From: Clostridia bacterium
GTDB lineage: Bacteria; Bacillota; Clostridia; TANB77; UBA1234
Direction: 5' to 3'
DNA length: 64,000 bases
Assembly (NCBI GenBank): GCA_017462965.1
Contig: JAFTQC010000032.1
Span: forward strand, 138,026 to 202,025
Shown here in pieces: positions 7,613 through 56,962 of this stretch. The notes beneath the pieces were generated by a model. That model was not told where the DNA came from, did not search any database, and saw only the letters and a list, made by a program, of their open reading frames with translations. Made by a program: the position numbers and the translations under genes. The first letter of the stretch is position 1. Each line of letters starts with the position of its first letter.

Positions 7613-7807
7613 TTGGAAATTGGGACGGTTCCTTTTTCCAGATTTTAATAATTGACAACAAAAAAGTATTGTTTTTAAGCCTCGGACAACTCATTATTCA
7701 TTGCGAACAAGATGCAATGAAAATGAGAACTCGGCGACAAAAAACAATACTTTTTTGTTGTCTTAAATAGTTTCATTTTTGGAAAAAGGAACCGTCCCAA
7801 TTTCCAA
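7613..7807. repeat. MITE-like palindromic element, copy A (195 bp). The TIRs are 28 bp: ttggaaattgggacggttcctttttcca.
   Basis: Perfect 28-bp terminal inverted repeats. The inner inverted repeat is caacaaaaaagtattgtttt / aaaacaatacttttttgttg. It exactly fills the gap between convergent stops 7608 and 7809. Confidence 0.85.
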
Positions 7808-7808
7808 T

Positions 7809-8444
7809 TTAATTTTTAGTTCTTTTTTTGTATTCTTTACAATATGTGTTGATGACGCATTCGTTACATTTAGGTTTTCTTGCATCACAAATGGCTCTGC
7901 CATAGTAGACAAATAGGTGATTCATAACACGCCAATACTTTTTTGGTATTTTTCTTAATAAATCTTGTTCTACTTTTGATGCGTCAGTATTTTTGGAAAG
8001 ACCTAGTTTGTTTGAAATTCGAAGTGCATGAGTATCAACTGCGATTCCTTGACAGTTATTAAAAGCTTCAAGCATTATTACATTTGCAGATTTTCTACCG
8101 ATTCCAGAAAGAGTGGTAAGCTCTTCCATAGTTTCTGGAACAACGCCATTAAAATTATTCATTATTTGCACGGATGCTTCACGTATATGCTTAGCTTTAT
8201 TGCGAAAGAAACTGATTGATGAGATTAACTTTTCAATTTCTGAAACTTTCATTTTTGAAAAAGCTTCAGGTGTGTTTGCAATTTTAAAAAGCTCTTTTGT
8301 AACTATATTTACTCGAGCATCTGTGCATTGTGCCGAAAGCATTACGGCGACTAATAGCTCAAAAGGAGTTGTATAATCTAAAGAACCTTTTTCACCATCG
8401 TAACATTTAGATAATTCAATAATAATTTTTTCGATATTTTTCAT
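7809..8444 (-). CDS. nth: Endonuclease III (HhH-GPD DNA glycosylase with a [4Fe-4S] loop).
   Basis: C-terminal CDARKPKCNEC..C motif. Start MKNIEKII with RBS gaggt. Confidence 0.85.
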   Translation of the reverse strand: MKNIEKIIIELSKCYDGEKGSLDYTTPFELLVAVMLSAQCTDARVNIVTKELFKIANTPEAFSKMKVSEIEKLISSISFFRNKAKHIREASVQIMNNFNGVVPETMEELTTLSGIGRKSANVIMLEAFNNCQGIAVDTHALRISNKLGLSKNTDASKVEQDLLRKIPKKYWRVMNHLFVYYGRAICDARKPKCNECVINTYCKEYKKRTKN

Positions 8445-8534
8445 AACATACCTCGTGTAATTTAGAATGTGACGTGTTTTTGTCACAATACTGATTTTAT
8501 CACATACAATATAGTAAATCAAAGGTAAGGAGAG

Positions 8535-8690
8535 ATGCCGAAAATGAATTTGTTTAAGAAAACTTTTGGAGTTTGTTTAATAGGATTTGGTTTTGGAACT
8601 TTATTAGTTTTATTACTTCCAGTATCCGGATGGATTTTCGGCATAGGAGTGATTACATTGTTAATGGGATTAATTTGGCTTTGTAGATAA
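8535..8690 (+). CDS. 51-aa small two-helix membrane peptide, below the ORF-track length cutoff.
   Basis: ATG at 8535 after the RBS aaggtaaggagag. Hydrophobic sequence MPKMNLFKKTFGVCLIGFGFGTLLVLLLPVSGWIFGIGVITLLMGLIWLCR. Confidence 0.3.
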   Translation: MPKMNLFKKTFGVCLIGFGFGTLLVLLLPVSGWIFGIGVITLLMGLIWLCR

Positions 8691-8821
8691 AATGAGAGGG
8701 AGTGGAATTATGAGAATTCTAGTTTACAGACCATCTAAGATAATGAGAAAAGTATTGCAATTTATGTTCAAAATAAAGAAATCTGAGGAATAGACAATAC
8801 ATAATATACGAGACAATTCAA

Positions 8822-8857
8822 AATCGTCCACGAGGGACGTCCGTCAAATGGACGATT
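8822..8857. repeat. GGACG-core palindromic repeat, type H3 (aatcgtcca..gggacgtcc..atggacgatt).
   Basis: Related copies occur at 24374-24410 and 46746-46786. Confidence 0.6.
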
Positions 8858-8867
8858 TTGAGTAAAA

Positions 8868-8898
8868 AAAAGCACCAGCTAAAACTGGTGTTTTTTTA
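8868..8898. terminator. Bidirectional rho-independent terminator: A-run, hairpin caccagctaaaactggtg, T-run.
   Basis: Sits immediately 3' of rpmB on the minus strand. Confidence 0.7.
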
Positions 8899-9084
8899 TT
8901 AAGCTCTTTCAATTAATCCAGATCTTAAACATCTAGAGCAAACTGTTAATTTTTTAGGTGTACCATCAACTACAGCTCTAACTGTTCTTAAATTTGGTTT
9001 CCAAGTTCTTGAAGATCTTCTATGTGAGTGACTCACTTGCATTGAGAACACTTTTTCTTTTTCACAAATTTCGCATTTTGCCAT
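8899..9084 (-). CDS. rpmB: 50S ribosomal protein L28.
   Basis: MAKCEICEK...SHSHRRS..TW.PNL family signature. Confidence 0.85.
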   Translation of the reverse strand: MAKCEICEKEKVFSMQVSHSHRRSSRTWKPNLRTVRAVVDGTPKKLTVCSRCLRSGLIERA

Positions 9085-9274
9085 TTCTAGCACCTCCCTC
9101 AGGTTTTTCTAAAATCGTTCTTTGATATTTTAGCACAAATAATAAACTTTGACAACAATTTTTACAATTTATTGCAATCAAAGTATATTAAATGGAATTA
9201 ATTGTAAGTTATATCTTTTGTTGCACGGATAGTTTATGACTTTTAAAGCAATTTGTCAATAATAATTTAAAAAT

Positions 9275-9299
9275 GGACAAAAGCCCCGTCCCTTTGTCC
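9275..9299. terminator. H2-type hairpin ggacaaaagccccgtccctttgtcc plus T-run. Terminator of the mcrB-like gene.
   Basis: 7-bp stem ggacaaa/tttgtcc followed by ttttt. Same unit recurs at 22419, 24347, 36713, 42705 and 42776. Confidence 0.65.
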
Positions 9300-9303
9300 A
9301 TTT

Positions 9304-10620: not shown

Positions 10621-10744
10621 GATTTATGGTAAACTTCAAGCAATGAATTAGCAAAAAGGAGCGTCCCTCTTGCTGAAAAAGGGCTGTTCCCGTTGCTAAG
10701 AACAAAAGTTTGTGATAATCTGATTAAGGATGGAGGATTATATA

Positions 10745-12793
10745 ATGGTAGATTTGGATATGGATTTGCGTTTTATAAAGGGTGTTGGTCCAGCAAGAGT
10801 GGAAATCTTGAATAAATTGGGACTTTTTACGCTGAAAGATATAGTTAATTATTTCCCGAGGGAATATGAGGATAGAGGAAATTATAAAAAGATAATAGAA
10901 GTTGTTGATGGAGAAACCGTTGCGGTTAAAGCAATTATAGCTTCAAATGTAAGTGAAACGAGAGTTAGAAGAAATATGGCCATATATAAGGCTATTGTTA
11001 GAGATGAAACTGGAAGCATGATACTCACATGGTTTAATCAGCCGTATATAAAGAAACAGCTAAAGATGGGGGAAGAATATTCTTTTTATGGCAAAATAAA
11101 GAATACATTTGGAAAAATAGAAATGCAATCACCGGTTTTTGATGAAAGCAGTAAGGCGAAAAATACTGGTAAAATTATACCGATATATCCATTAACAAAT
11201 GGAATTACACAAAATGTTTTTAGAGGAATTGTTGAATCTGCTGTGAAAACTGCTAGTGGAAGCTTGGAAGATTCGCTTCCTGAATGGATTAGAACACAGA
11301 ATAATTTGGATGATATTGAAACTGCAATAAAAAATATACATTTCCCAGAACATTTGGCTCAGTTTGATAAGGCTAGATATAGACTTGCTTTTGAAGAGTT
11401 ACTTACGATGCAACTTGGACTCTTGAGGTTTAAGGAAAAGGGCAAAGAAGATATAAAGGGGATTTCGTTTGAGAAAGATGAGAGAATGGATGAACTTTTG
11501 GCTACTTTGCCGTATACGCTTACTAATGCTCAACAAAAAGTATGGAAAGAAATTGACGCTGACATGAAAAGTGATAAGTCGATGAATCGACTTGTTCAAG
11601 GTGATGTTGGATCTGGTAAAACGGTTGTTGCTACTATGGCTATGTTTAAAGCGGTTCGAAATGGATATCAAGCAGCATTAATGGCTCCGACAGCAATTCT
11701 GGCGAGACAGCATTATGAAGGCATATCAAAAATGGTTTCAAGCTTTGGAATGAAAGTGCAACTGTTAACGGGAGATGTTACGAAAAAGAATAAACAAATC
11801 ATTTTGGATGAATTAAAGAATGGCGAAATAGATATGATAATAGGAACGCATGCTTTAATCGAAGAAAATGTTGAATTTAAAAATATTGGTCTTGTAATAA
11901 CAGATGAACAGCATAGATTTGGTGTTAGGCAAAGAGGAATTTTGTCTTCCAAAGGTGAAAAGGTAGATACGTTAGTAATGACTGCAACTCCAATTCCTAG
12001 AACGCTTGCGATTATTTTGTATGGTGACTTGGATATATCAATAATTGATGAATTGCCACCAGGAAGACAAAAGATAGATACTTTTGCGGTACGTCGTAAT
12101 ATGGAAGAGAGAGTAAATAATTTTGTTATTAAAGAGATTACTGATGGTAGACAAGCGTATATAGTTTGTCCGCTAGTAGAAGAGTCTGAGAATATGGATG
12201 GGGTAAAGTCTGTGACTGAACAACTTGAATATTATAAGAAGGTTTTTAGGGATTTTAATGTAGAAATGCTTCATGGGAAGATGCGTCCGAAAGAAAAGGA
12301 TGAGATAATGGCTAGATTTAAGGCGAATGAAATACAGGTTCTTATATCAACGACGGTCATAGAGGTTGGTGTTGATGTGCCTAATTCAACTATTATGATT
12401 GTCGAAAATGCAGAAAGATTTGGACTAGCTCAGCTTCATCAGCTTAGAGGGCGTGTAGGAAGAGGTAAGTTTAAGTCGTATTGTATACTTAAATATGATA
12501 GTAAGTCGGACGTTGTTAGGCAGAGAATGGAAATAATGCAAAAAAGTAATGATGGATTTGTAATATCTGAAAAGGATCTTGAATTAAGGGGTCCTGGAGA
12601 CTTTTTTGGTACGAAGCAACATGGTATACCAGAGTTTAAGGTTGCAAATCTTTTTGTTGATGTTCCTATACTTAAAGTAGCACAAAGTGTTGCAAATACA
12701 ATAAATGAAGATGATCCTGAACTTAAATTGCCAGAAAATGGGATGCTGCTTAGAAAAATAGAAGAATTATTTAAAGAAAAAATATCTTTGTAG
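10745..12793 (+). CDS. recG: ATP-dependent DNA helicase RecG.
   Basis: Wedge domain followed by helicase motifs (GDVGSGKT, DEQHRFG). Confidence 0.9.
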   Translation: MVDLDMDLRFIKGVGPARVEILNKLGLFTLKDIVNYFPREYEDRGNYKKIIEVVDGETVAVKAIIASNVSETRVRRNMAIYKAIVRDETGSMILTWFNQPYIKKQLKMGEEYSFYGKIKNTFGKIEMQSPVFDESSKAKNTGKIIPIYPLTNGITQNVFRGIVESAVKTASGSLEDSLPEWIRTQNNLDDIETAIKNIHFPEHLAQFDKARYRLAFEELLTMQLGLLRFKEKGKEDIKGISFEKDERMDELLATLPYTLTNAQQKVWKEIDADMKSDKSMNRLVQGDVGSGKTVVATMAMFKAVRNGYQAALMAPTAILARQHYEGISKMVSSFGMKVQLLTGDVTKKNKQIILDELKNGEIDMIIGTHALIEENVEFKNIGLVITDEQHRFGVRQRGILSSKGEKVDTLVMTATPIPRTLAIILYGDLDISIIDELPPGRQKIDTFAVRRNMEERVNNFVIKEITDGRQAYIVCPLVEESENMDGVKSVTEQLEYYKKVFRDFNVEMLHGKMRPKEKDEIMARFKANEIQVLISTTVIEVGVDVPNSTIMIVENAERFGLAQLHQLRGRVGRGKFKSYCILKYDSKSDVVRQRMEIMQKSNDGFVISEKDLELRGPGDFFGTKQHGIPEFKVANLFVDVPILKVAQSVANTINEDDPELKLPENGMLLRKIEELFKEKISL

Positions 12794-12795
12794 CA

Positions 12796-12850
12796 GGAGG
12801 GACGCCCCTTTTTGTGAAAAAATTTTCACAAAAAGGGGCGTCCCTCTTGC
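12796..12850. terminator. H1-type long palindrome (agggacgcccctttttgtgaaaa aatt ttcacaaaaaggggcgtccct) plus A/T runs.
   Basis: About 23-bp perfect stem directly after the recG stop. Confidence 0.7.
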
Positions 12851-13030
12851 TAAAAAAAATTATTATTTATGGTAAACCAGGCAGGATTTTGAAAAAATCC
12901 GTCGAATTATTATAATTATGGGTTGATAAATAAAAAAAATATTGCTAAAATATTGAAACAATTTTGCTAGACTTCACTTTAAAGATGAATAGCAAGAAAC
13001 AAAAAAAGAAAAAATAAAGGTGTGTATGTA

Positions 13031-14848: not shown

Positions 14849-14914
14849 CTTGTTTGTTGACTTGAACTAATTACAAATAATCTTATTAAAAAGTTAGGAA
14901 GGAATGGTAGTAAA

Positions 14915-16018: not shown

Positions 16019-16039
16019 TATAAGGATGGAGGTTTATAT

Positions 16040-16732: not shown

Positions 16733-16750
16733 TAAAATAAGGAGGCTAAT

Positions 16751-19075: not shown

Positions 19076-19082
19076 GGGAGAG

Positions 19083-19772
19083 ATGAGGATGCCTAAGTAT
19101 TTTGAATATGTTTTTCTTTTGCTTACGTTTGTTGTTGGAACTACGATTGGATTATATTCAGGAACTAATTTCACTCAAAATATAAATGAAATTGCTGAAA
19201 GTAGAATTACACGCAGTGTTCAAGACGCCGTAATTGCGAAGATTCAAGAAGAATATGACTTGAGAAAAATTGATGCAAAAGATTCTTTAGAAATTTTTAA
19301 TTCGGAAATTGCAAATATTGAAAATCGTATAAAAGCTAATGAAGATATAATTGAAGTTTCGGTTTCTGAGACAAAGCTTTCTACTTCTGCTGAAATGGTG
19401 GTAAAAAAGAATTTTTCACGTTGTAATCACAGTGAAGTGAATAGAATGAAAATACCTGCAGAGATAGTGAATTATACAGAGGATGAAGTTGAAGAAAAAT
19501 ACTCAGGTTGGACAATCGAGAAGTTCAGTGCGGATGAAATAGTTTTAAGCAAGGACATAGATGCCAACTGTACAGACCATTATGTTATAAAAGAAACCAA
19601 TGGTAAGGTGGCTGTATATAATGAAATTGCAGAAGATAAGATGAATTTTGTTGAACATATAGATATTGATCTTACACTTCTTTCGGATGCGGAAAAGGAA
19701 AAATTTGTTGATGGAATACGAGTGTATGGAAAAGAAGAAGTGAGCAGTCTAATAGAGGATTATAATTCATAG
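19083..19772 (+). CDS. Hypothetical membrane-anchored protein.
   Basis: N-terminal TM segment. The alternative start at 19089 is equally plausible. Confidence 0.5.
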   Translation: MRMPKYFEYVFLLLTFVVGTTIGLYSGTNFTQNINEIAESRITRSVQDAVIAKIQEEYDLRKIDAKDSLEIFNSEIANIENRIKANEDIIEVSVSETKLSTSAEMVVKKNFSRCNHSEVNRMKIPAEIVNYTEDEVEEKYSGWTIEKFSADEIVLSKDIDANCTDHYVIKETNGKVAVYNEIAEDKMNFVEHIDIDLTLLSDAEKEKFVDGIRVYGKEEVSSLIEDYNS

Positions 19773-19784
19773 CTAGAGTAATTT

Positions 19785-19978
19785 TTGGAAATTGGGACGG
19801 TTCCTTTTTCCAATTTTATCGAAAGACAACAAAAAAGTATTGTTTTTAAGCCTCAGACAACTCATTGTTCATTGCAACCATTATGCAATGAAAATGAGAA
19901 CTCGGCGACAAAAAACAATACTTTTTGTTGTCTTAAATAGTTTCTGTTTATGGAAAAAGGAACCGTCCCAATTTCCAA
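19785..19978. repeat. MITE-like palindromic element, copy B (194 bp). Same orientation as copy A and near-identical to it.
   Basis: Same 28-bp TIRs. Fills the gap between convergent genes ending at 19772 (+) and 19986 (-). Confidence 0.85.
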
Positions 19979-19985
19979 AAAATAT

Positions 19986-22316
19986 TTATCTTGATAATAC
20001 AACTTTATTTTCTATTAAATTTAATACGACTGTGTCGTTTGGTAGTAGTTCGTTTCTTAGCAAGCATTCAGCTAGTTCGTTTTCAACATATTTTTGAATT
20101 GCTCTACGAAGTGGGCGAGCGCCGTATTTTGCTTCGTATCCCTTTTCAAGAATATAGTTCTTAACTTCGTCGGTGAATGTGATTTGAATATTTTTTTCTG
20201 CTAATTCATCAGATATTTCTTTAAGCATTAAATCAATAATTTGTAATAATTCTTCTTTTGATAGTGTATTGAAGACAATTATTTCATCAACTCTATTTAA
20301 GAATTCTGGTCTAAATGAAGATTTTAATGCATCCATGACTCTAGCTTCTACAAGAGGAGCTTCGTCTCTATTAAAACCAATTCCATTTGTATTTAGGTTT
20401 GAACCGGCGTTTGATGTCATTATTATGATTGTATTATCAAAGTTAACTGTTCTTCCTTGCGCATCTGTAAGTCTTCCATCATCAAGTATTTGAAGAAGTA
20501 GGTTAAATACATCTGCATGAGCTTTTTCGATTTCGTCAAATAGAATTAGTGAGTATGGATTTCTTCTAACTTTTTCTGTTAATTGACCAGCATCATCGTA
20601 TCCAACGTATCCTGGAGGAGAACCAATGAATTTAGAAACAGAGTGGCTTTCCATATATTCGGACATATCAAGTCTAATTATTGATTCTTCATTGCCATAA
20701 AGTTCGTTTGCTATGCATTTTGCAAGTTCTGTTTTACCAACGCCTGTAGGTCCTACAAATATGAATGAAGGTGGGCGTTTTTTATTTCTAAGCCCTGCAC
20801 GATTTCTTCTGATTGCATTACATACAGCAGTAACAGCTTTATCTTGTCCAATCAATTTTTTATGAATGTTAGCTTCTAAATTTAGTAACTTTTCGGCTTC
20901 TGTCTCAGAAATCTTTGAAGCAGGTATTTTTGTCCAGTTTTCAATAACAGAAGCAATATCATCAATATTTAATTCAAGCTCTAAATTGTTTCCTTGAGAC
21001 ATATCTGCAATTTGGTTAAGCAAGGCCGTTTCATGTGATTTTAAGTTTGCAATTTTCTCGTAATCAGGTTCAGTGTTTGTATCTGTAATTTCAATATCTT
21101 CAAGAGAAGCTTTTTCTTCTTGAACTTGTTCAAGTTCTTCTTTTAATATTTGAAGTTGAGCAAGAACTTTGTTTGTCAAATTAACCTTAGAACATGCTTC
21201 ATCCAAAATATCAATTGCTTTATCAGGCAAAAATCTATCGTGAATGTATTTTTCGGACATTAATACAATTTGTTTTATCAAAGTGTCTGAAACTTTTACA
21301 TGGTGGTATTCTTCATAATAATCTTTAATTCCAAGCATAACCTCGATAGTGTCTGAGATAGAAGGTTCCTCAACGATAACTGGTTGAAATCTTCTCTCTA
21401 GAGCAGCATCTTTTTCGATATGCTTTCTATATTCTTTAAGTGTAGTAGTACCAATGACTTGAATGTCTCCGTTAGATAGAGCAGGTTTTAAAATATTAGC
21501 AGCATTCATCGTATGATCAACATCGCCACCTGCACCAACAATATTATGAATTTCATCGATAACTAGAATTATATTTCCAAGGTCGCGACATTCTTCAATC
21601 AAAGATTTCATTCTAGCTTCAAATTGACCTCTGAATTGAGTTCCAGCAACCATTGAAGTCATATCAATTTGATAAATCTCGCAAGATAAAAGTTTAGCAG
21701 GAACTTCTTTGTTTGCAATTCTAAGAGCTAATCCTTGAGCGATAGCTGTTTTACCAACACCGGGTTCACCAATAAGAACCGGATTATTTTTGCTACGACG
21801 ATTCAAAATTTGCGTAACTCTTTCAATTTCAGTGTCTCTGCCAATTAATTTATCAATTTTACCTTCACGAGCTTTGGCAGTTAAATTAATACCGAAAGCG
21901 TCAAGCGTTTTTCTTTTTTTATCTTTTTTCTTGTCTTTAACATTCTTAGAAGTAGTTTTTGATTTTTCAGTTTTTGGAGTGTCTTCCTTATTGTGGTTTG
22001 TAGAATTTGGGAATAAATTAGATAACATAGAAGAAAAAGCTTCTGGATTATCTAAATTTTCCATTTCCTTAGTCAATTCTTCAGGGATTTCCATATCTCC
22101 AGATGAAAGAGATGATACAATTTCTTCAAACTGTTCATTCAAACTAGCAATATCCTCCTCAGAAGCACCGTATTGTTTCATCATTGAAGCTAGTGGATTG
22201 ATGCCTCTTTCTTTTGCGCAAGTAAGGCAAAGCCCTTCAAGCTTAGGTGAGCCATCTATAATTCTATTAACAAAAACTACTGCCGTATTTTTCTTACATA
22301 CTGAGCATAGTGACAT
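19986..22316 (-). CDS. clpE: ClpE-like Clp ATPase: N-terminal Zn-finger followed by two AAA+ modules.
   Basis: MSLCSVCKK...CLTCAKERG zinc ribbon. Two AAA+ Walker A motifs: GEPGVGKTAIA and GPTGVGKTELA. Confidence 0.8.
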   Translation of the reverse strand: MSLCSVCKKNTAVVFVNRIIDGSPKLEGLCLTCAKERGINPLASMMKQYGASEEDIASLNEQFEEIVSSLSSGDMEIPEELTKEMENLDNPEAFSSMLSNLFPNSTNHNKEDTPKTEKSKTTSKNVKDKKKDKKRKTLDAFGINLTAKAREGKIDKLIGRDTEIERVTQILNRRSKNNPVLIGEPGVGKTAIAQGLALRIANKEVPAKLLSCEIYQIDMTSMVAGTQFRGQFEARMKSLIEECRDLGNIILVIDEIHNIVGAGGDVDHTMNAANILKPALSNGDIQVIGTTTLKEYRKHIEKDAALERRFQPVIVEEPSISDTIEVMLGIKDYYEEYHHVKVSDTLIKQIVLMSEKYIHDRFLPDKAIDILDEACSKVNLTNKVLAQLQILKEELEQVQEEKASLEDIEITDTNTEPDYEKIANLKSHETALLNQIADMSQGNNLELELNIDDIASVIENWTKIPASKISETEAEKLLNLEANIHKKLIGQDKAVTAVCNAIRRNRAGLRNKKRPPSFIFVGPTGVGKTELAKCIANELYGNEESIIRLDMSEYMESHSVSKFIGSPPGYVGYDDAGQLTEKVRRNPYSLILFDEIEKAHADVFNLLLQILDDGRLTDAQGRTVNFDNTIIIMTSNAGSNLNTNGIGFNRDEAPLVEARVMDALKSSFRPEFLNRVDEIIVFNTLSKEELLQIIDLMLKEISDELAEKNIQITFTDEVKNYILEKGYEAKYGARPLRRAIQKYVENELAECLLRNELLPNDTVVLNLIENKVVLSR

Positions 22317-22348
22317 TTATCAAAACTCCTTTTTCTTTAAAGTAAATA

Positions 22349-22408
22349 TGAGTCTAAAGTGCTACAGACTCAATAATAAATATTACAACAAGGGGGGAGA
22401 AATGTCAA
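22349..22408 (-). promoter_or_regulatory. clpE promoter TTGACA-17-TAATAT (minus strand). An inverted repeat gagtct-N10-agactc lies immediately downstream of the -10.
   Basis: -35 at plus 22403-22408, -10 at plus 22380-22385, IR at 22349-22372. Confidence 0.45.
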
Positions 22409-22418
22409 CTTGATGAAA

Positions 22419-22444
22419 TGGACAAGGGGGACGGGGCTTTTGTC
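22419..22444. repeat. H2-type hairpin (ggacaagggggacggggcttttgtcc) between divergent genes, so not a terminator here.
   Basis: Reverse-complement form of the 9275 unit. Confidence 0.6.
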
Positions 22445-22469
22445 CATTTTATGAAGAATTTATAGCACT

Positions 22470-22498
22470 ATTGACACATTATGTAAAGTGATATATAA
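22470..22498 (+). promoter_or_regulatory. Perfect consensus sigma-A promoter TTGACA-17-TATAAT.
   Basis: 65 nt upstream of the 22563 ORF. RBS aaggagg precedes the ATG. Confidence 0.55.
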
Positions 22499-22562
22499 TA
22501 TCTGTGAAAATGAAATGCATTTTCGAATAAAGAATCTCAAATTTTGAGAAGGAGGAGTTTGC

Positions 22563-23420
22563 ATGGGCAAATCTCGCTGGAATCGGAGTGTAGCGATTCC
22601 TACCGAATCCTTAACTCTTGAGGAGTTGAAGGAGGCTATTCATGAATGGGCAGAAGGGTGCGACGAACTTGAAAAACTGTTGTGGTCTTGTTACAACAAT
22701 GGTTTGAAGACTGCTGGATGCCACGTTGGCAAGTACAACAATTACTTGCAGTATTATGTTGCTTCTGAGAGCAAAGAACAGTCTGCGCGTGTTCTCAATG
22801 CTACTGAATCGTATGGCAATAGTGAAGCGTTTCTTACTTTCGGCGGTAATCCGATTAGTGGTCCGTCGTGGTACAAGACGAATATTAGCATTTCGTCGTA
22901 TATTCCTGACGATGTTGGCTCTTTTTATGCCAGCATTAATAGGGAATTGGAAGGCGAAACACATGTTGAGGCACGCTGTTTTGGACTGATGGCTGAATTC
23001 GCAGATTTTTTCGAAGATAAGATGACCGGACTTTATTTTCGGGTGACTGTTCGTAATCATTCCGAATATAGGTTTATTGTCGAATCTTACATGAATCAGC
23101 GGAACTGGGAATATCTTGATGAACTTTTCGGTTCTTTGGGTCTGGTTCGTGAAGAAAGAGAAGACGTTCCGCTTGTCGCATGGAGCTTGAATGCTTCTTC
23201 GGAAGAGGAGTTTTATAATGGAGTGAAATCTCTTCTGGATGCAATTCGTAGCAACTGGGCAATCGAGACTCCCACGACTTTTTTTGATGATATGGGTTTC
23301 AATCTCAAGGCATTGATCATGCAGAAAAAGTTTGGTACGACTCCTGAGGGTGTGGCTCTGATGAACAACTGGATCAACACCAATCATCCCAATCCCAATG
23401 TGCGCAAGGTCAATTATTGA
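22563..23420 (+). CDS. 285-aa hypothetical protein, about 50% GC with CG-rich codon usage.
   Basis: A long antisense shadow ORF (22611-23387) reflects the composition. The plus strand is chosen because of its promoter and RBS. Confidence 0.55.
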   Translation: MGKSRWNRSVAIPTESLTLEELKEAIHEWAEGCDELEKLLWSCYNNGLKTAGCHVGKYNNYLQYYVASESKEQSARVLNATESYGNSEAFLTFGGNPISGPSWYKTNISISSYIPDDVGSFYASINRELEGETHVEARCFGLMAEFADFFEDKMTGLYFRVTVRNHSEYRFIVESYMNQRNWEYLDELFGSLGLVREEREDVPLVAWSLNASSEEEFYNGVKSLLDAIRSNWAIETPTTFFDDMGFNLKALIMQKKFGTTPEGVALMNNWINTNHPNPNVRKVNY

Positions 23421-23589
23421 TAAGCGCGAGAAAGAATAACAATGAACACCTCTTATGGCACATGCTGTAAGGGGTGTTTATTGTTATCCTTATTGTATGT
23501 GCTTGTTATATTATATCAATATGGCTATAATGTTGGTGAATTGTCACTCTTTTTCTAAAACATCTCATTTGTTTGAGGAGGGAAGCTTT

Positions 23590-24114
23590 ATGTGTTTGTT
23601 CAAACGGCCATCTAATAGAAATTATGAATTCGATGCGAAATTAGAAGACCATCCCGTTGGCAATCAGGACATCTACAGATTACACTATGTTCATTACCAT
23701 AGGATTCAGGAGTATGACGGATGCACCGATAATAACGTCGGTGTTATAAACTGGTGGTGCAGGCCTTTCAAAATGCCGGCTGGCATGACTCGTGATGAAG
23801 GATTCAAGGTTTTGTCCTATCTGACAGATTTCATTGAAAAAAGGCCTGATATAGATCCTTGCTCTTGGAAATCTGTTCGGACCCTTGATTCAGTTTTGAA
23901 TCTTGAGCGTTTTGACTTTACTAGGGTCGACGAAAAAGACGAAAACAAAATTCTGGATCTTTTTTCTGTTGGAGGCAGAATCTTGCTTTTCAAAAAGAGC
24001 GAGCACTATCCGCGTTATTTTGAATGGTATGTCCAAAACGTGTCATTTGATGAGGTTCATAGCATATATGAAAGCTGTGGAATGGAGTTTAAAGATATTG
24101 TATGGCTTGATTAA
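23590..24114 (+). CDS. 174-aa hypothetical protein with higher GC.
   Basis: RBS gaggaggga before the ATG at 23590. Promoter TTGTTA-17-TATAAT near 23503-23531. The longer track ORF from 23455 lacks an RBS. Confidence 0.5.
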   Translation: MCLFKRPSNRNYEFDAKLEDHPVGNQDIYRLHYVHYHRIQEYDGCTDNNVGVINWWCRPFKMPAGMTRDEGFKVLSYLTDFIEKRPDIDPCSWKSVRTLDSVLNLERFDFTRVDEKDENKILDLFSVGGRILLFKKSEHYPRYFEWYVQNVSFDEVHSIYESCGMEFKDIVWLD

Positions 24115-24145
24115 AAGCTATAAACATTGAGGACGTCTGTTAAAC

Positions 24146-24342
24146 TTGGAAATTGGGACGGTTCTTTTTTCCAAAATACAAACTTTTTAAAACAACAAAA
24201 AAAGTATTGTTTTTTGTCGCCGAGTTCTCATTTTCATTGCATCATGTTTGCAATGAACAATGAGTTGTCTGAGGCTTAAAAACAATACTTTTTTCGTTGT
24301 CTTACGTTAAAATTGGACAAAAGCCCCGTCCCAATTTCCAAA
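24146..24342. repeat. MITE-like element, copy C (197 bp). Its core is inverted relative to A and B, and its right TIR is a hybrid with the H2 unit (ttggacaaaagccccgtcccaatttccaa).
   Basis: Followed by the H2 hairpin at 24347-24371 and the H3 repeat at 24374-24410. Confidence 0.8.
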
Positions 24343-24455
24343 AAAGGACAAAAGCCCCGTCCCTTTGTCCAGACAATCGTCCATTTGCCGGACGTCCCTC
24401 ATGGACGATTATTTACATTAATAGCTATTTATGGTATAATCTGCGAGGTGATGTC

Positions 24456-27368: not shown

Positions 27369-27400
27369 TTTTAAAATATTAATATAGCGGAGGATGAGCT

Positions 27401-28624: not shown

Positions 28625-28685
28625 GAAATTATGATAAAAAAGAGTGCTATTTAGCACTCTTTTTGTTTGCAAAATATATTGCTCA

Positions 28686-28850
28686 CTAATATTTGCGATT
28701 TTCAGCGTATGAACTACAGCATGTTTCGTCTTCGGGTGTTCCATTTTTTTGATTCTTACAAGGACACACTTGTATAGCATTTAATGTACACTCGTTTTTT
28801 TCTGTTAAATTGTGAGCACATGAACAAACACTGCATTTTATTTTAGCCAA
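28686..28850 (-). CDS. 54-aa small Cys-rich protein (8 Cys: CSVCSC..C..CPC..CC).
   Basis: TTG start after the RBS ggagtg. Flanked by a terminator at 28640-28668 and an H2-like hairpin at 28925-28957. Confidence 0.35.
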   Translation of the reverse strand: MAKIKCSVCSCAHNLTEKNECTLNAIQVCPCKNQKNGTPEDETCCSSYAENRKY

Positions 28851-29031
28851 ATCAATCACTCCAAAATAAAAGTTTGTTTTTGAGGCCTCAATAAATATTA
28901 TTTTCAAAATAGTGAAGAATATTCATAACAATTTAAATTTATGGACAAAATTTTCCGTCCCCGTTGTCCAAAATTATTAAATATGATAAAGTTGTTCTAG
29001 GAAATTATTTCATAGAAGGAGTGTTTTATTT

Positions 29032-29961: not shown

Positions 29962-29988
29962 TTAATACTAAAGGGTGGAGGAGTGCAA

Positions 29989-31266: not shown

Positions 31267-31275
31267 GGACGGTGT

Positions 31276-31836
31276 ATGAATTTGAATGATACGTCTTTGA
31301 TGAAAAAAATAAGAGAACTTTTTTTGTATTTCATTTTATATTCTATGATAGGATGGATATACGAGGTCGTTTTGGAAGTATTCATTTATAAATGGGGATT
31401 TTCAAATAGAGGAGTGCTGTTTGGCCCTTATTGTCCAGTGTATGGATTTGGGGTATTAGCGTTTTTCTTTACGATATATCCTCTTATAAAGGATAAATCT
31501 TGGAAGAAAAAATTGCTTTATATTCCGGTAGTATTTTTAGGTTGTATGCTTGTTGCAACTGCTATTGAACTTGTAACGTCATATATATGTGAACTATTCA
31601 TGGGCTCATGGCCTTGGCAAACATATGCCAGAGACTATGTGTATCATTTTCAGGGTAGAATAGCGCTTAGTCCAAGTATTAGATTTGGACTTGGAGGAAC
31701 ATTCTTTTTATACGTATTACAACCATTATTTGAGAAGCTTACAAAAAACATGAGTTCTAAAGTGTTAAATATTGTAACTAATATATTAGCAGTAATAATA
31801 GGTGTGGACGTAATATACACATTTTTAATTAAATAA
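31276..31836 (+). CDS. Small polytopic membrane protein (DUF1113 / putative ABC-transporter type IV-like).
   Basis: Hydrophobic profile and YSMIGWIYEV motif. Confidence 0.45.
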   Translation: MNLNDTSLMKKIRELFLYFILYSMIGWIYEVVLEVFIYKWGFSNRGVLFGPYCPVYGFGVLAFFFTIYPLIKDKSWKKKLLYIPVVFLGCMLVATAIELVTSYICELFMGSWPWQTYARDYVYHFQGRIALSPSIRFGLGGTFFLYVLQPLFEKLTKNMSSKVLNIVTNILAVIIGVDVIYTFLIK

Positions 31837-31884
31837 AATTAGAAAAAGACAAAGGGAAAAAACCTTTGTCTTTTTTAGCAAGAG

Positions 31885-32175
31885 TTATCAAGAGGGACGC
31901 CCCTTTTTGAAAAAAAATTCATCAAGAGGGACACTCCTTGATTAAATTGATTAGTATAAGAAGAAAGTATTCCTTTCAAGCTTTAAACAGAATATTTATA
32001 TTACATATATGATTTAATACAAATGAGAAATTAGCAACAAAAACAATACTTTTTGTATTGAATAAAATTAGTTGAAGTAAGCTAAAAAAGTGACTTTTAC
32101 TGATAAATATTTTTTCTCAAAAAGGGCTGTCCCTTTTGATGAATTTTTTCTCAAAAAGGGGCGTCCCTCTTGATA
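31885..32175. repeat. Cluster of H1 hairpins (caagagggacgcccctttt) plus a degenerate ~40 bp fragment of the MITE core (aatgagaaattagcaacaaaaacaatactttttgtattg) at about 32022-32060.
   Basis: By eye against the cores of copies A and B. Confidence 0.55.
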
Positions 32176-32332
32176 ATTTTTTGTAAAAAATGGTATATTT
32201 GTATGCTTTTGAAATATGTATATTGGGTGAAAAACTTGCAAATGAGCTTGGTTAATTGTAGAATAATGATGGATATTGTCGACTTAAAGATTGATTTAGT
32301 TGATGGATATTAGTTTGGAGGAAATTAAGATT

Positions 32333-35300
32333 ATGAAAAAAGTGTTAAATGTTGGTTTAGACATTGGTTCAACAACGGTTAAGGTTGTTGTTTTAGATGA
32401 AAATGAAAAAGTTTTGTATTCATCATATAGAAGACATTTTTCTGATACTAAAACTGCGGTGTATAATCTTTTAGTTGAGGTTGTTCAGAAATATAAGGAT
32501 TATTCGTACAAGGTTTGTTTTACTGGTTCAGGAAGTATGTCTATTGCTAAAGTTTTAAATTGTAAGTTTATTCAAGAAGTTATTGCATGTAAAAATGCGG
32601 TTAAAAAGTATATTCCGGAGACGGATGTTGCAATAGAGCTTGGTGGAGAAGATGCGAAAATAATTTATTTTGATAAGTTTATTGAACAAAGAATGAATGG
32701 TAGTTGTGCTGGTGGTACAGGTGCTTTCTTGGATCAAATGGCTACGCTTTTAAATACGGATCCATCTGGTTTAAATGAACTTGCAAAGGATTTTAAGATT
32801 ATTTATCCGATTGCATCTAGATGTGGTGTTTTTGCTAAAACGGATGTACAACCACTTATAAATGAAGGTGCAAGTCGTGCAGATCTTGCAGTTTCTATTT
32901 TACAAGCCGTTGTAAATCAAACTATTAGTGGACTTGCTTGCGGTAGACCTATTAGAGGGAAGGTTGCTTTCCTTGGCGGACCACTTACATATTTGCCTGA
33001 ACTTAGAAATAGATTTATTGCTACTTTAAATATGAAAGATGAAGATGTAATTGTTCCAGAAGAAGGACATTTGCTTGTAGCTAAAGGAGCTGCGCTTGAT
33101 GCTGTTTCTGAAGCGGAAATTTCTTCAGCAAAGTTTTCTGAATATCTTGAAATTTTAAAAGAGTATAAAGGTGATGAAAACCCAGCGTTACCACCATTGT
33201 TTAATACAATTGCGGAACTATCTGAATTTAAAAAGAGACATGCTAAGTTTAAAGCTCCAAGAGCAAAGTTAGAAGGGTATTCTGGAAATGTATTTCTTGG
33301 AATTGATGCGGGTTCTACAACGTCAAAACTTGTTTTGATTGATGATAGGGGATGCATTTTGTACTCTGCATACAGAAGTAATGAGGGTAGTCCTTTGAAT
33401 ACAGTTTCAGAGATGATTAAGGATGTTTATCAATCATTACCAAAGAAGGCTAAAATTAAACTTGTTGGTACAACTGGTTATGGAGAAAATCTAATAAAGA
33501 CAGCTATTAATGCAGATATAAGCGAAATTGAAACAATTGCTCATACGAGAGCTGCAAATCATTTTATGCCAAATGTTGAGTCTATCGTAGACATAGGCGG
33601 TCAAGACATGAAGTATATAAGACTTAAAGAAAGTACAATTGATAACATTATGCTTAATGAAGCTTGTTCATCAGGATGTGGATCTTTCTTACAAACTTTT
33701 GCTAGTAATTTAAACATTTCATTAGATGATTTTGTTAGAGAGGCAATTCTTGCGAAGACCCCTGTTGATTTGGGTTCAAGATGTACAGTTTTCATGAATT
33801 CAAAGATTAAACAGGCTCAAAAAGAAGGTGCGAATGTAGGCGATATTTCTGCGGGACTTTCTTATTCAGTTGTAAAAAATGCACTTCAAAAAGTTATGAA
33901 GATTCGTGATACAAGCAAGCTTGGTGACCATATAATTGTTCAAGGTGGAACATTTTCGAATGATGCAGTTTTAAGAGCTTTTGAATTGATAGTAGGGAAA
34001 AATGTTATAAGACCAGATATATCTGGACTTATGGGTGCATATGGAATGGCGCTTCTTTGTAAAGATAAATATAAATCTTCAAAGAGAATTGCTGACGAAA
34101 AATCTAGTATGCTTTCTTATGATGAACTTAAGAATTTAACTTTCAAAACTTCGCATGTTAGATGTCAAAATTGCGAGAATCATTGTTTACTTTCAATTAA
34201 CAAATTTAGCAATGGTAAGAGTTTAGTTACTGGTAACAGATGTGAAAAGGGTGCAGGTAATACTACATCTAAGAACAACAATTCGTTACCTAACTTATAT
34301 AAATACAAATATGAAAGAACTTTCGACTATGTTCCGTTAAAGGAAGAGGATGCTAAAAGAGGAAAGATTGGTATCCCAAGGGTTCTTAATATGTATGAGA
34401 ATTATCCATTCTGGCATACGTTTTTTACAGAGCTTAAATTTAGTGTTGTTCTTTCTGAAAAGACAAGTAGAAAAACTTATGAAAAAGGCATGGAATCGAT
34501 ACCTTCAGAGTCAGTATGTTATCCTGCAAAGATTACGCATGGACATATAATGAGTTTAATTGATCAAGGTGTAGATACAATTTTCTATCCATGTATTCCT
34601 TTTGAAAGAATAGAGCAAAAGAATGCGGAGAATCACTATAATTGTCCGATTGTAATTTCGTATTCTGAAGTTATTAAAAATAATGTTGAAGACTTGTCTG
34701 AGAAGAAAATTAAATTTATGAATCCATTCTTGCCTTTTGAAACTAAAGCGTTAGTTGAGGTAATATACGGACTTGAAGAGTTTAAAGAATATAATTTGAA
34801 GAAATCGGAGATTGCTAGAGCGGCGAAAAAAGCGCAAGAGGAATATAATAGATATAGAAATGATATTCAGAAGAAGGGTGAAGAAACCTTAAAATATTTG
34901 GAAGAAAACAATATTAAAGGCATTGTTTTATCTGGAAGACCATATCACATTGACGGAGAAATTAATCATGGTATTGATACGATGATTACGGGACTTGGAA
35001 TGGCAGTACTTACTGAAGATTCAGTTGCACATTTGAGTGAACTTGAAAGACCGCTTAGAGTTGTTGATCAATGGATGTATCATTCAAGACTATATGCTGC
35101 AGCTGATTTAGTTGGAAGAAAAGATAATTTAGAGCTTGTTCAACTTAATTCATTTGGATGTGGAATTGATGCTGTTACAACAGATCAAGTTGAAGAAATT
35201 TTAACAAGCTTTGGCAAGATGTATACACTTATAAAAATTGATGAGGTAAATAATCTTGGTGCAATTAGAATTAGAATAAGATCGCTTCTTGCTGCTATGA

Positions 35301-36646
35301 AAAAGCGTGAAGAAGAAGGAACTTGTCCAATTTCTAAGGCGCCTACATATACAGTTAATAAAGTTCCTTTCACCAAGAAAATGAAAGAAACTCATACGAT
35401 TCTTTGTCCACAGCTTTCACCAGTTCATTTTGAATTTTTGGAAGCAGCTATGGATAGCTCAGGATATAAATTAAAATTACTTCGCGAATGCACAGAAAAA
35501 ACTGTTGAAGTTGGATTGAAATATGTTAATAACGATGCATGTTATCCATCGCTTCTTGTAATTGGACAATTAATCGAAGCATTGCAATCAGGCGAGTATG
35601 ATTTGGATACTACTGCTGTAATTATTTCACAAACTGGCGGCGGATGTAGAGCTACAAACTACATAGGATTCTTAAGAAAAGCACTTGCTGATGCAGGATT
35701 CCCAAATGTTCCTGTAATATCATTTAACTTTGCAGGACTTGAAAAGATGCCAGGCTTCAAGATTACGTTAAGTATGGCCTCAAAGCTTATAAGAGCCGTT
35801 ATTTTCGGAGATTTATTAAGCAGACTATTATTACGCAATCGTCCATATGAAATGAATAAAGGCGAATCTAACGCGTTATATGAGAAGTGGGTAAAACGCG
35901 GAAGAGATGTAATTAGAAGTGGTCATGGTGAAGAATATAAAACAGCAATCCAAGAGATGGTTAATGACTTTGATAAGATAAAGATTACAAATGACGTTAA
36001 ACCTAAAGTTGGTGTTGTTGGAGAAATATTGATTAAATATCATCCTTTTGGAAATCACAAAGTTGTGGAACAACTTGAAGCAGAAGGTGCAGAAGTTGTA
36101 CTTCCTGATTTTATGGGATTCATTAAATTCGTTGCTACAAGTAAAATTAACATTAGTGACCTTATGAAAATAGGAAAATTCAAAGGATATATTTCAAGAA
36201 AAGTAATTGACTTACTTGATGCGCAAGAAGTATATGTAAGAGAAGTTTTGGAAAAAGCTAAAAAATCATATAGAGAGCCATGTGACATTTGGAAACTTAG
36301 AGATAGAGTTGGGGAAATTTTATCGATAGGTAACCAAACAGGTGAAGGTTGGTTCTTGACAGCAGAAATGCTAGAACTTATAAAAGATGATGTTCCAAAC
36401 ATTGTTTGTGTTCAACCATTCGCGTGCCTTCCAAACCATGTTGTTGGTAAAGGTGTTATAAAATCAATAAGAGAGCATTATCCAAAAGCAAACATTGTTG
36501 CGGTTGACTATGATCCAGGTGCAAGTGAAGCAAACCAAACAAATCGTATAAAACTGCTTATGTCAGTAGCCAGGGATCAAATGGAGGAAACAGCTTCAAA
36601 CAAGAAAAAAGCAAAAGGAAAAACTAAAATTAAAGCAGCAAAATAA
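32333..36646 (+). CDS. Giant fused CoA-substrate-specific enzyme activase (two BadF/BcrA/HgdC-type ATPase modules) and 2-hydroxyacyl-CoA dehydratase HgdB-like component, about 1437 aa.
   Basis: Repeated GIDAGSTTSK and LDIGSTTVK ASKHA motifs, and a Cys-rich middle segment. RBS ggagga before the ATG at 32333. Confidence 0.75.
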   Translation: MKKVLNVGLDIGSTTVKVVVLDENEKVLYSSYRRHFSDTKTAVYNLLVEVVQKYKDYSYKVCFTGSGSMSIAKVLNCKFIQEVIACKNAVKKYIPETDVAIELGGEDAKIIYFDKFIEQRMNGSCAGGTGAFLDQMATLLNTDPSGLNELAKDFKIIYPIASRCGVFAKTDVQPLINEGASRADLAVSILQAVVNQTISGLACGRPIRGKVAFLGGPLTYLPELRNRFIATLNMKDEDVIVPEEGHLLVAKGAALDAVSEAEISSAKFSEYLEILKEYKGDENPALPPLFNTIAELSEFKKRHAKFKAPRAKLEGYSGNVFLGIDAGSTTSKLVLIDDRGCILYSAYRSNEGSPLNTVSEMIKDVYQSLPKKAKIKLVGTTGYGENLIKTAINADISEIETIAHTRAANHFMPNVESIVDIGGQDMKYIRLKESTIDNIMLNEACSSGCGSFLQTFASNLNISLDDFVREAILAKTPVDLGSRCTVFMNSKIKQAQKEGANVGDISAGLSYSVVKNALQKVMKIRDTSKLGDHIIVQGGTFSNDAVLRAFELIVGKNVIRPDISGLMGAYGMALLCKDKYKSSKRIADEKSSMLSYDELKNLTFKTSHVRCQNCENHCLLSINKFSNGKSLVTGNRCEKGAGNTTSKNNNSLPNLYKYKYERTFDYVPLKEEDAKRGKIGIPRVLNMYENYPFWHTFFTELKFSVVLSEKTSRKTYEKGMESIPSESVCYPAKITHGHIMSLIDQGVDTIFYPCIPFERIEQKNAENHYNCPIVISYSEVIKNNVEDLSEKKIKFMNPFLPFETKALVEVIYGLEEFKEYNLKKSEIARAAKKAQEEYNRYRNDIQKKGEETLKYLEENNIKGIVLSGRPYHIDGEINHGIDTMITGLGMAVLTEDSVAHLSELERPLRVVDQWMYHSRLYAAADLVGRKDNLELVQLNSFGCGIDAVTTDQVEEILTSFGKMYTLIKIDEVNNLGAIRIRIRSLLAAMKKREEEGTCPISKAPTYTVNKVPFTKKMKETHTILCPQLSPVHFEFLEAAMDSSGYKLKLLRECTEKTVEVGLKYVNNDACYPSLLVIGQLIEALQSGEYDLDTTAVIISQTGGGCRATNYIGFLRKALADAGFPNVPVISFNFAGLEKMPGFKITLSMASKLIRAVIFGDLLSRLLLRNRPYEMNKGESNALYEKWVKRGRDVIRSGHGEEYKTAIQEMVNDFDKIKITNDVKPKVGVVGEILIKYHPFGNHKVVEQLEAEGAEVVLPDFMGFIKFVATSKINISDLMKIGKFKGYISRKVIDLLDAQEVYVREVLEKAKKSYREPCDIWKLRDRVGEILSIGNQTGEGWFLTAEMLELIKDDVPNIVCVQPFACLPNHVVGKGVIKSIREHYPKANIVAVDYDPGASEANQTNRIKLLMSVARDQMEETASNKKKAKGKTKIKAAK

Positions 36647-36650
36647 AATT

Positions 36651-36737
36651 TGGAAAAGAGAACCGTCCCAAATTCCAATTTGGAAATTAGGACGGTTCCG
36701 TTTTCCAAAAAAGGACAAAAGCCCCGTCCCTTTGTCC
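36651..36737. repeat. Core-less MITE derivative: a right-type TIR is directly followed by a left-type TIR forming a ~26 bp stem, then an H2 hairpin and a T-run. It acts as the terminator of the 32333 gene.
   Basis: tggaaaagagaaccgtcccaaattccaa + ttggaaattaggacggttccgttttccaa + ggacaaaagccccgtccctttgtcc tttttttt. Confidence 0.75.
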
Positions 36738-36796
36738 TTTTTTTTATTGCATAAATTCTTTTACAAATTCATATAATTGGATTTGAGGAGGGGGCT

Positions 36797-56953: not shown

Positions 56954-56962
56954 CCAAAAAGT

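Follow-up and report, generated by a model that had tools for sequence, protein, structure and literature searches.

A candidate REP/BIME-like family of intergenic hairpin repeats with a conserved GGGAC apex in the core chromosome of an uncultured Clostridia bacterium

The repetitive extragenic palindromes (REPs, also called palindromic units, PUs) and bacterial interspersed mosaic elements (BIMEs) of Escherichia coli, as well as the REPINs (REP doublets forming hairpins) of Pseudomonas with their RAYT/TnpA_REP (REP-associated tyrosine transposase) Y1 enzymes, are short imperfect palindromes that are dense in extragenic DNA. Several sub-types of them coexist as solo units, inverted dimers and mosaic clusters with conserved linkers; they occur after stop codons and inside operons, show no target duplication and differ in abundance between lineages. 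In BIME-1, two inverted REPs surround a linker with an integration host factor (IHF) site. Research on REP and REPIN repeats, like that on their domesticated transposases, has dealt almost exclusively with Proteobacteria. The present work concerns a 64,000-nt stretch of the genome of a Clostridia bacterium (GCA_017462965.1, contig JAFTQC010000032.1, positions 138,026 to 202,025; hereafter, the window), a region of core chromosome with the genes mtaB, helD, nth, rpmB, recG, dnaG, sigA, comEC, clp, cca, argS, fba, lepA, scpB, addBA and mreB, and the non-coding composite elements A, B, C and E that it carries. These are probably BIME-like composites belonging to a REP/BIME-like family of non-autonomous hairpin repeats spread as selfish DNA by a trans-acting enzyme. 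This reading was adopted because the repeats are short extragenic palindromes of several sub-types, occur in solo, dimeric and mosaic form with conserved linkers, lack target duplications and vary in abundance by lineage; the family would extend the phenomenon to Firmicutes. In contrast to REP, BIME and REPIN sequences, however, there is no GTAG/CGTC at the 5′ foot and the invariant GGGAC(G) is apical, the linker (core) is much longer and itself palindromic, and the host belongs to the low-GC Clostridia, in which no REP family has been described, with no flanked RAYT gene found here.

The CGTC-tagged REPs (Di Nocera et al. 2013, PMC3733652) resemble the present repeats in the CGTC string, in frequent head-to-head dimers and in having no identified dedicated transposase. 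Their tag, however, is an unpaired 5′ head followed by an 8–9-bp stem starting with AT, a 4–5-nt loop and a CCA tail (PMC3733652), whereas here CGTCCC lies within the loop and upper stem, and membership in this group was rejected on architecture. CGTC REPs were reported in five phyla, and Firmicutes or Clostridia are named nowhere in the text of that paper (PMC3733652). Group 1 RAYTs were reported in Clostridia (PMC5581495), whereas Quentin 2018 mentions Clostridia only for subclass 1.1. Membership in the REP-RAYT family is not claimed for the repeats described below, given that the GTAG/CGTC foot tag is absent and no RAYT was found in the 471 kb searched. As the preliminary description of this DNA had expected, no match to a described element family was found in Rfam, among plasmids and phages or in the literature; the searchable literature contained no description of the family by sequence strings or topics, and the published REP surveys report no such family. 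The new element is the apex-conserved, stem-covarying unit combined with a long palindromic linker, in a clade without such a description, REP/BIME-like behaviour being already known.

All five sequences listed in the preliminary description were found where it had placed them, far above chance. Composite A (7613–7807, + strand) consists of a type-1 hairpin unit (7613–7640), a linker, a core of ~140 nt forming an imperfect palindrome, a second linker and an inverted type-1 unit (7780–7807). Composite B (19785–19978, + strand) has the same orientation and a core 94% identical to that of A. The two are indeed matching elements with perfect inverted ends of 27–28 nt (TTGGAAATTGGGACGGTTCCTTTTTCC in A) that fill gaps between convergent genes: A begins 4 nt past the stop codon of an SLH-protein gene (7606–7608) and finishes 1 nt short of the nth stop codon (7809–7811), and the inverted repeat of B (19779–19984) lies between the stop codons of a BofC-like gene (19770–19772) and of the clp ATPase gene (19986–19988). 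The 27-mer end sequence had seven matches in the window at ≤3 mismatches vs. none in 100 shuffles. Composite C (24146–24341, − strand) aligns with A and B over its full length in reverse orientation (88–93%), and the pairwise identity among A, B and C was 93–94%. The "flipped core" ascribed earlier to C is only an insertion in the opposite orientation, since the element ends are symmetric; its hybrid right end was borne out. This end (24313–24341, on the right in the window; TTGGACAAAAGCCCCGTCCCAATTTCCAA) has the left arm of type 2 and the right arm of type 1, with the junction exactly at CGTCCC, and adjoins a genuine type-2 unit; recombination, strand transfer or template switching at this shared motif would be expected to give such a product.

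Composite E (31871–32190, + strand) includes a diverged core (31943–32075; ~71–73% identical to A) with two type-3 units on each side (31887–31910 and 31921–31942; 32116–32142 and 32150–32174), and its inverted arms of 69 nt are 88% complementary. The core-like stretch at 32022–32060, previously taken for an isolated fragment, is present but belongs to this complete composite. Copy D (36650–36708) was found to be a tail-to-tail dimer of two abutting type-1 units in the order (−,+). It had been considered a core-less element or an excision footprint, but the element ends are ordered (+,−), and D can therefore be neither; abutting (+,−) dimers are present elsewhere (loci L004, L009, L013, L023 and L024).

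The whole composite folds as a single hairpin of ~200 nt on either strand (RNA, −97.5 and −97.1 kcal/mol, z = −14.9 and −15.8, respectively; DNA, −65 kcal/mol). The central ~95 nt of the core were nearly invariant across four copies from two genomes, with the asymmetric internal-loop sequences (CTCGG..ACAA) conserved and the linkers variable. The elements of ~195 nt have no apparent coding capacity, their insertion sites are AT-rich, and the search for target-site duplications that the preliminary description had proposed detected no direct repeat in the flanks of A, B, C or the copy at locus L001. Metagenome assembly ERZ28018670 (European Nucleotide Archive) contains a contig, k141_970404, that is 100% identical to the window, and contigs of the same population were either 100% identical or ended inside repeats. 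Five independent short-read contigs from other samples end inside elements, namely, at window positions 7634, 24171, 24344 and 32175 and at site B (the gap occupied by B) in the relative L047; such ends are the usual signature of multi-copy repeats.

The 28-nt terminal inverted repeat (TIR) of the preliminary description is a self-folding hairpin, one sub-type among intergenic hairpins of ~25–36 nt that carry an apical GGGAC(G) on covarying stems. The shared layout is a 5′ arm, GGGAC(G), 3–5 nt and a T-rich 3′ arm, and at least four sub-types were distinguished: type 1, TTGGAAATT-GGGACGG-TTCCTTTTTCCAA; type 2, GGACAAA-GGGACGG-GGCTTTTGTCC; type 3, AGCAAGA-GGGACGC-CCCT(C/T)TTGCT; and type 4, AATCGTCCA...GGGGACGTCC...TGGACGATT. 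Three different arm pairs (CGTCCA/TGGACG, GAGCA/TGCTC and GTCCC/GGGAC) carry the type-4 apex TTGGGGACGTCCGTTAAAT unchanged. Apical GGGAC is the sole invariant block; on the 5′ side of the stem, the positions are A/T and vary. GGGACG/CGTCCC occurs 32 times in the window vs. 3.9 expected (the largest count in a shuffle was 8), with 24 of the occurrences forming the apex of intergenic hairpins; the family is thus much larger than the five members first proposed. Within positions 1–47 kb, where intergenic gaps of at least 30 nt were counted and degenerate copies included, 30 units occupy 15 of the 27 gaps, and four more are found in the 6.6 kb upstream. When 59 distinct units of the window, of its relatives and of metagenomes were aligned, 9 of the 11 stem pairs had two-sided changes, which totalled 83 cells vs. 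28.2 in shuffles (0/500), and the covariation score was 0.414 vs. at most 0.22 in slid registers; it should be noted that the aligned units were preselected at ≥8 of 11 pairs, which inflates the percentage paired but not the two-sided changes.

Units are arranged as solo copies, direct dimers, inverted dimers and clusters; inverted dimers are common (12792–12851, 42706–42803, L004, L009, L013 and L024), but solo units and direct dimers are about as frequent. The BIME type of mosaic, namely, alternating palindromic units of several sub-types with a conserved linker, was observed in A, B, C, E, the L044 ortholog of B and the cluster 24126–24410. Units lie, in either orientation, at or over stop codons, between terminators and promoters and in divergent promoter regions, and in the metagenome loci they are often directly 5′ of ribosome-binding sites. 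In unidirectional gaps, GGGAC was on the sense strand 27 times and GTCCC 22 times; the orientation is unbiased, which makes a role as strand-specific RNA unlikely. Terminator-like scores were obtained for several units, and runs of A and T flank many units; several genes nevertheless retain a classical terminator beside a unit.

The unit and the core are two separable modules with different distributions. A scan with a TIR 20-mer of 185,579 species-representative genomes returned only the metagenome-assembled genome (MAG) CASDSU01 ("uncultured Eubacteriales bacterium"), with four matches: one full composite (L001; core 95.5% identical to that of A), two solo units and one dimer, the units of L002–L004 being without the core; the species of the window itself is evidently absent from the GTDB representatives. 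The metagenome scan returned 29 loci, 26 of which were judged real (GC 25–31%); in all 26 the unit TTGGAAATTGGGACGGTTCTCTTTTCCA is present, either singly or in dimers (direct or inverted), and none contains the core. Apart from the four window composites A, B, C and E, the core was found only in L001 and at the L044 site orthologous to B. The 28-nt end is consequently not private to the element, as the preliminary description had assumed, but an autonomous hairpin that occurs solo and dimeric without the core in the 26 metagenome loci and in CASDSU01. The same core carries type-3-like ends in L044 and type-3 ends in E, so the end units are exchangeable. The metagenome loci also contain a further branch of hairpins with a GGGGACA apex, e.g., GATTTTGGGGACACATCCCAAAATC and TAATTTGGGGACACACACCAAATTA, and half-units such as GTGTCCCTTTTTCCAAC (L010 ~380–420; L034 2240–2290, 4040–4090 and 6660; L035 ~1870 and ~2200).

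Syntenic relatives were identified through Clp homologs: L053 (99.5% nucleotide identity to the window), L047 (98% amino acid identity), L044 (97% amino acid identity for clp, ~86% nucleotide identity), L045 (90% amino acid identity) and L046 (86% amino acid identity), and, at a greater distance, L051 and L052. The gap at site B had four different fillings in four genomes, with a fifth, partial configuration at the contig end of L047. The window has the core between two type-1 units; in L044 this core, at 85% identity, is bordered by type-3-like ends, and 11 pairs show compensatory changes, of which three fall within the core; two ordinary terminators occupy the gap in L045; a GGGAC palindrome built of GCACTTTGGGGAC units fills that of L046; and L047 has a type-1 unit followed by other units. 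Between recG and dnaG, the type-3 inverted dimer of the window stands where L044 and L045 keep a conserved ordinary terminator. Similarly, L047 and L044 have an ordinary terminator at site C, where in the window element C is preceded by a type-4 remnant and followed by a type-2 and a type-4 unit. The identity of B to its L044 ortholog is only ~85%, compared with 93–94% among the paralogs A, B and C, which points to recent copying or concerted evolution in the lineage of the window. The density of units was 0.42 per kb in the window, 0.40 in L047, 0.04 in L044, 0.18 in L045, 0.24 in L046, 0.09 in L051 and 0 in L052, a tenfold difference between sister species. Taken together, these comparisons show that the units turn over fast, with ordinary terminators often giving way to them.

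Clean insertions or deletions of 163 and 34 nt distinguish the window from L047. The 163-nt element (L047, reverse complement, ~8190–8360) is a nested palindrome in which a 27-nt inverted repeat (GGCAGGGAAAGTTTAGATTTAGGGCAG) forms the outer layer and encloses an inverted dimer of type-4-like units; it sits exactly at the centre of a 10-nt perfect palindrome of the window, TGAGGCCTCA (TGAGG|CCTCA, 28881–28890). This palindrome is the exact "empty site" of the L047 element or a remnant of its central deletion. The insertion allows at most an ambiguous 2-nt (GC) target-site duplication.

The proposed mechanism is as follows. The units would spread as selfish DNA, with a trans-acting enzyme recognizing the hairpin and the conserved apex serving as the specificity determinant. 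By analogy with REPs, the likeliest candidate is an RAYT/IS200-type HUH/Y1 transposase of single-stranded DNA, whose gene would lie in another part of the genome and whose substrates would be hairpins extruded from single strands. The end modules may be shuffled when neighbouring units recombine, or when the template is switched between them, at the CGTCCC that they share, as the hybrid end of C would exemplify. The inserted units would be tolerated and probably partly co-opted as bidirectional terminator-like or 3′-end hairpins.

Several results weigh against this REP/BIME-like reading. Since the invariant motif is apical and not at the 5′ foot, as in the GTAG/CGTC REPs, RAYT-type recognition is only an analogy. 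The type-1 unit was 25–27/27 identical in organisms whose MreB is only 76% identical to that of the window (one metagenome organism has this value), and such near-identity across distant hosts, unusual for REPs, hints at horizontal spread or host constraint. Most "replacements" are not clean insertions, and gene conversion or recombination, not transposition, could be their source. No GGGAC unit occurs in the window at 47–64 kb or in the next 9 kb (~26 kb). Finally, the mobilizing enzyme that the preliminary description had also called for was not encountered: Pfam detected no Y1/HUH or other transposase gene in the window, 16 kb of its flanking sequence, five syntenic loci or the 26 metagenome loci, and tblastn with IS200, IS608 and RAYT queries gave no match in 471 kb (window and loci), a negative that is weak because the query sequences were unverified and only ~80 kb of the window's own genome were read.

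Other searches for an enzyme or a parent insertion sequence (IS), in these 471 kb and in sequence collections, gave the same outcome. Pfam and NCBIfam identified no transposase among ~45 open reading frames (ORFs) of the window, and in none of the loci examined does a unit pair enclose a transposase gene. Brackets resembling REPtrons contain ordinary genes, namely, for a small membrane protein, a small acid-soluble spore protein (SASP) and a lysine-rich protein beside a large enzyme gene (L016, L035 and L031). An IS110 match in a CoA-activase protein was dismissed as a BadF/ROK-fold artefact. The genes of 285 and 174 aa beside C were likewise rejected as candidates, having neither family matches nor nuclease motifs, with the 285-aa gene absent from the unit-rich L047. 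Blastn of copy A against plasmid and phage collections gave no match, and viral contigs scanned with the exact type-1 to type-4 unit sequences gave 0 matches.

The two genes beside C (285 aa, 22563–23420; 174 aa, 23590–24114; GC ~39%) form, together with C and its flanking units, a block (22417–24411) bracketed by inverted type-2 units at 22418 and 24345. The block is polymorphic: L053 has both genes, L047 has the 174-aa gene only, and L044 has a remnant of ~100 nt. The L053 contig (reverse complement; same sample series) is 99.5% identical to window positions 19992–24171 and diverges abruptly at the 3′ end of clp, where B abuts; over its positions 1–236, compared with window 19756–19991, the upstream gene and the last codons of clp are different, and an ordinary terminator is present. 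The divergence may mark a breakpoint of recombination at the element; otherwise, the contig is an assembly chimera.

Among the alternatives to the REP/BIME-like reading, two were considered unlikely to a similar degree. According to the first, the units represent a new class of hairpin repeats recognized at the loop by an enzyme other than RAYT, e.g., a loop-nicking HUH nuclease, as in rolling-circle Rep, or a hairpin-specific recombinase, which would assemble nested palindromes, swap end modules at their common motif and overwrite terminators across the clade. The palindrome-associated transposable elements (PATEs) derived from IS200/IS605 and the nick-site hairpins of rolling-circle Rep (HUH) proteins likewise involve recognition of a hairpin in single-stranded DNA without target duplication, and rolling-circle origins also have a conserved loop motif on a variable stem. 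PATEs differ, however, in that their subterminal hairpins are directly oriented and not the same on the left and on the right, and in that they target a specific tetra- or pentanucleotide; in addition, the units described here have no linked Rep or TnpA gene. Cleavage at the apex is at most suggested by the hybrid unit 24313–24341. If such a loop-recognized class exists, the near-identity of the 28-nt unit at 76% MreB identity would mean that enzyme and substrate spread horizontally.

According to the second, also rather doubtful, the units are functional hairpins selected by the host, namely, bidirectional terminators, stabilizers of mRNA 3′ ends or binding sites of host proteins, that were spread by recombination or gene conversion. 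Their position at or over stop codons, the A-run and T-run flanks and the several terminator-like scores agree with this explanation, as do the units standing in for ordinary terminators at orthologous sites, the conservation of the apex and the type-1 unit in distant taxa, the nearly invariant central core amid variable linkers and the compensatory changes that maintain pairing. On the other hand, units are also located immediately upstream of ribosome-binding sites and in the promoter regions of divergent genes, many genes retain their own classical terminator beside a unit, and no orientation preference relative to transcription was observed. The tenfold difference in density between sister species, with units decaying in L044, and the lack of units across 26 kb of core genes also argue against host selection, and gene conversion is unable to place units at new loci.

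A classical miniature inverted-repeat transposable element (MITE), i.e., an IS deletion derivative with 28-bp TIRs mobilized by a DDE transposase in cut-and-paste or copy-paste fashion, was judged quite improbable. The size of ~195 bp, the perfect inverted ends of 27–28 nt, the lack of coding capacity, the AT-rich sites and the presence of several copies would suit such an element, as would the clean insertion of the 163-nt palindrome in L047, where 2 nt (GC) may be duplicated. However, A, B, C and the L001 copy lack direct repeats, and the supposed TIR is a self-complementary hairpin that also exists solo and in direct dimers and is far more widely spread than the core. Moreover, end units are interchangeable between orthologous and paralogous composites, the unit pairs of L016, L035 and L031 flank ordinary genes and none encloses a transposase, and the exact type 1–4 units and copy A lack matches in viral contigs and in plasmid and phage collections, respectively. 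Thus, of the mobile MITE-like family proposed in the preliminary description, the multi-copy, non-coding, palindromic, intergenic and evolutionarily dynamic character was retained, whereas the self-contained MITE with private TIRs was not.

Other described small intergenic elements also differ from the present ones. The Correia elements of Neisseria (CREE, Correia repeat enclosed elements, or NEMIS, Neisseria miniature insertion sequences) are intergenic, 100–155 bp in length, with ~26-bp inverted ends and a core; they form long hairpins in transcripts, are located near gene ends and affect termination and processing. Their ends, however, are not autonomous hairpins and have no superfamily of solo units, and they duplicate a TA target, whereas neither a TA duplication at the elements nor any sequence similarity to CREE was detected here. 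RUP, BOX and SPRITE of Streptococcus pneumoniae and bcr1 of the Bacillus cereus group are likewise small, non-coding, multi-copy structured intergenic repeats of low-GC Gram-positive bacteria, and BOX is similarly modular (boxA, boxB and boxC). Nevertheless, none of the four is related in sequence or built from an invariant-apex hairpin on covarying stems, and RUP and bcr1 behave as IS-derived MITEs with target duplications.

It is very improbable that the ~140-nt core is a structured small RNA with the flanking hairpins as terminator or processing signals, a role also raised in the preliminary description: although its fold is very stable (z ~−15), its asymmetric internal loops (CTCGG..ACAA) are conserved and, unlike the variable linkers, its central ~95 nt hardly differ among four copies from two genomes, the palindromic nature of the element lets either strand fold as well as the other, copies lie in both orientations without bias relative to transcription, scans for the sigma-70 consensus list no strong promoter-like site inside any copy, E has diverged to an identity of 71%, and no Rfam family was matched (0 matches at gathering thresholds; in E-value mode, only sub-threshold plant and animal miRNA-precursor models, a generic long-hairpin artefact). 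A hairpin bound by a protein at the RNA level (CsrA- or IRE-like) was ruled out by the unbiased orientation, and a DNA-uptake sequence, Chi or a KOPS-like motif by the confinement of the motif to intergenic hairpins.

The hosts of the REP/BIME-like family are uncultured spore-forming Clostridia from gut and digester metagenomes, and they provide a natural experiment in which sister species at ~86–93% nucleotide identity span 0.04–0.42 units per kb and one gap is filled in four or five ways. The 6-nt loop motif is a concrete handle for finding the recognizing protein. The repeats break short-read assemblies of the clade exactly at gene boundaries, and their replacement of canonical terminators matters for operon and terminator prediction in MAGs.

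The remaining units of the window are distributed as follows. A solo type-3 unit, AGCAAGAGGGACGCCCCTCTTGCT (2799–2822, −), lies 6 nt past a stop codon. A solo type-4 unit (8822–8857, +), with arms AATCGTCCA/TGGACGATT and apex GGGACGTCC, was found downstream of the rpmB terminator, and a terminator-like solo type-2 unit, ATGGACAAAGGGACGGGGCTTTTGTCCAT (ATGGACAAAAGCCCCGTCCCTTTGTCCAT on the + strand of the window; 9273–9301, −), directly 3′ of a McrB-like gene. The divergent promoter region between the McrB-like gene and recG contains a type-3 direct dimer with a degenerate second unit (10650–10697, −), absent in L044 and L045, and the type-3 inverted dimer mentioned above (12792–12851) overlaps the recG stop codon. 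Upstream of clp, also in a divergent region, there is a solo type-2 unit (22418–22447, +) that is present in L047 and absent in L044. In the cluster 24126–24410, which combines types 4, 1, 2 and 4, an arm-less remnant of a type-4 apex, ATTGAGGACGTCTGTTAAAC (24126–24145, +; by eye, 16 of its 20 positions match the type-4 apex), abuts element C, and a type-2 unit (24345–24370) followed by a type-4 unit (24375–24410), both on the − strand (24345–24410), completes the BIME-like group. At the position of a solo type-2-like unit (28941–28970, −), L047 has an extra abutting type-2 unit of 34 nt and L044 a decayed remnant. A type-2 unit with A-run and T-run flanks (36712–36738, −) adjoins D, and a type-3 direct dimer with a partly degenerate first unit (39897–39950, −) is situated upstream of lepA. 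The type-2 inverted dimer at 42706–42803 has 38-nt arms, 100% complementary, around a 38-nt spacer, with the arms beginning within the stop codon of a SpoU-methylase gene. The last unit, a solo type-4 copy (46748–46783, +), is at the stop of a gene with a Cthe_2159 domain and precedes the 26-kb unit-free stretch.

This last unit is at the left edge of a region (46800–50030) with a GC content of 40–46% vs. ~32% elsewhere, which may be foreign DNA. Its long ORFs (46854–47462, −; 47687–48655, +; 48728–49960, −; and the overlapping 48788–50026, +) had no NCBIfam match, and the sole Pfam match was a sub-threshold one to Metallophos on 48728–49960; a promoter-like site scoring 12/12 is present at 47579–47607 (−). 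The unit-free ~26 kb (window 47000–64000 and L038 11800–20996), with addBA, mreB and the NAPRTase and xer-like genes and extending beyond them, contrast with 34 units in the preceding 53 kb, and the gaps there carry ordinary terminators, e.g., at 48664–48704 and 59357–59387. Within addA, a weak match (35.6 bits vs. a gathering threshold of 65.2) to Rfam n00280, a Clostridioides difficile small RNA within a helicase gene, was recorded at 55958–56057 (+) and probably reflects conservation of the coding sequence. The GC skew flattens past ~58 kb (window 58000–64000 and L038), and just after a gene for an XerC/D-like tyrosine recombinase (62143–63138) the gene orientation shifts from mostly + to mostly −; these shifts could mark the replication terminus or an inversion boundary.

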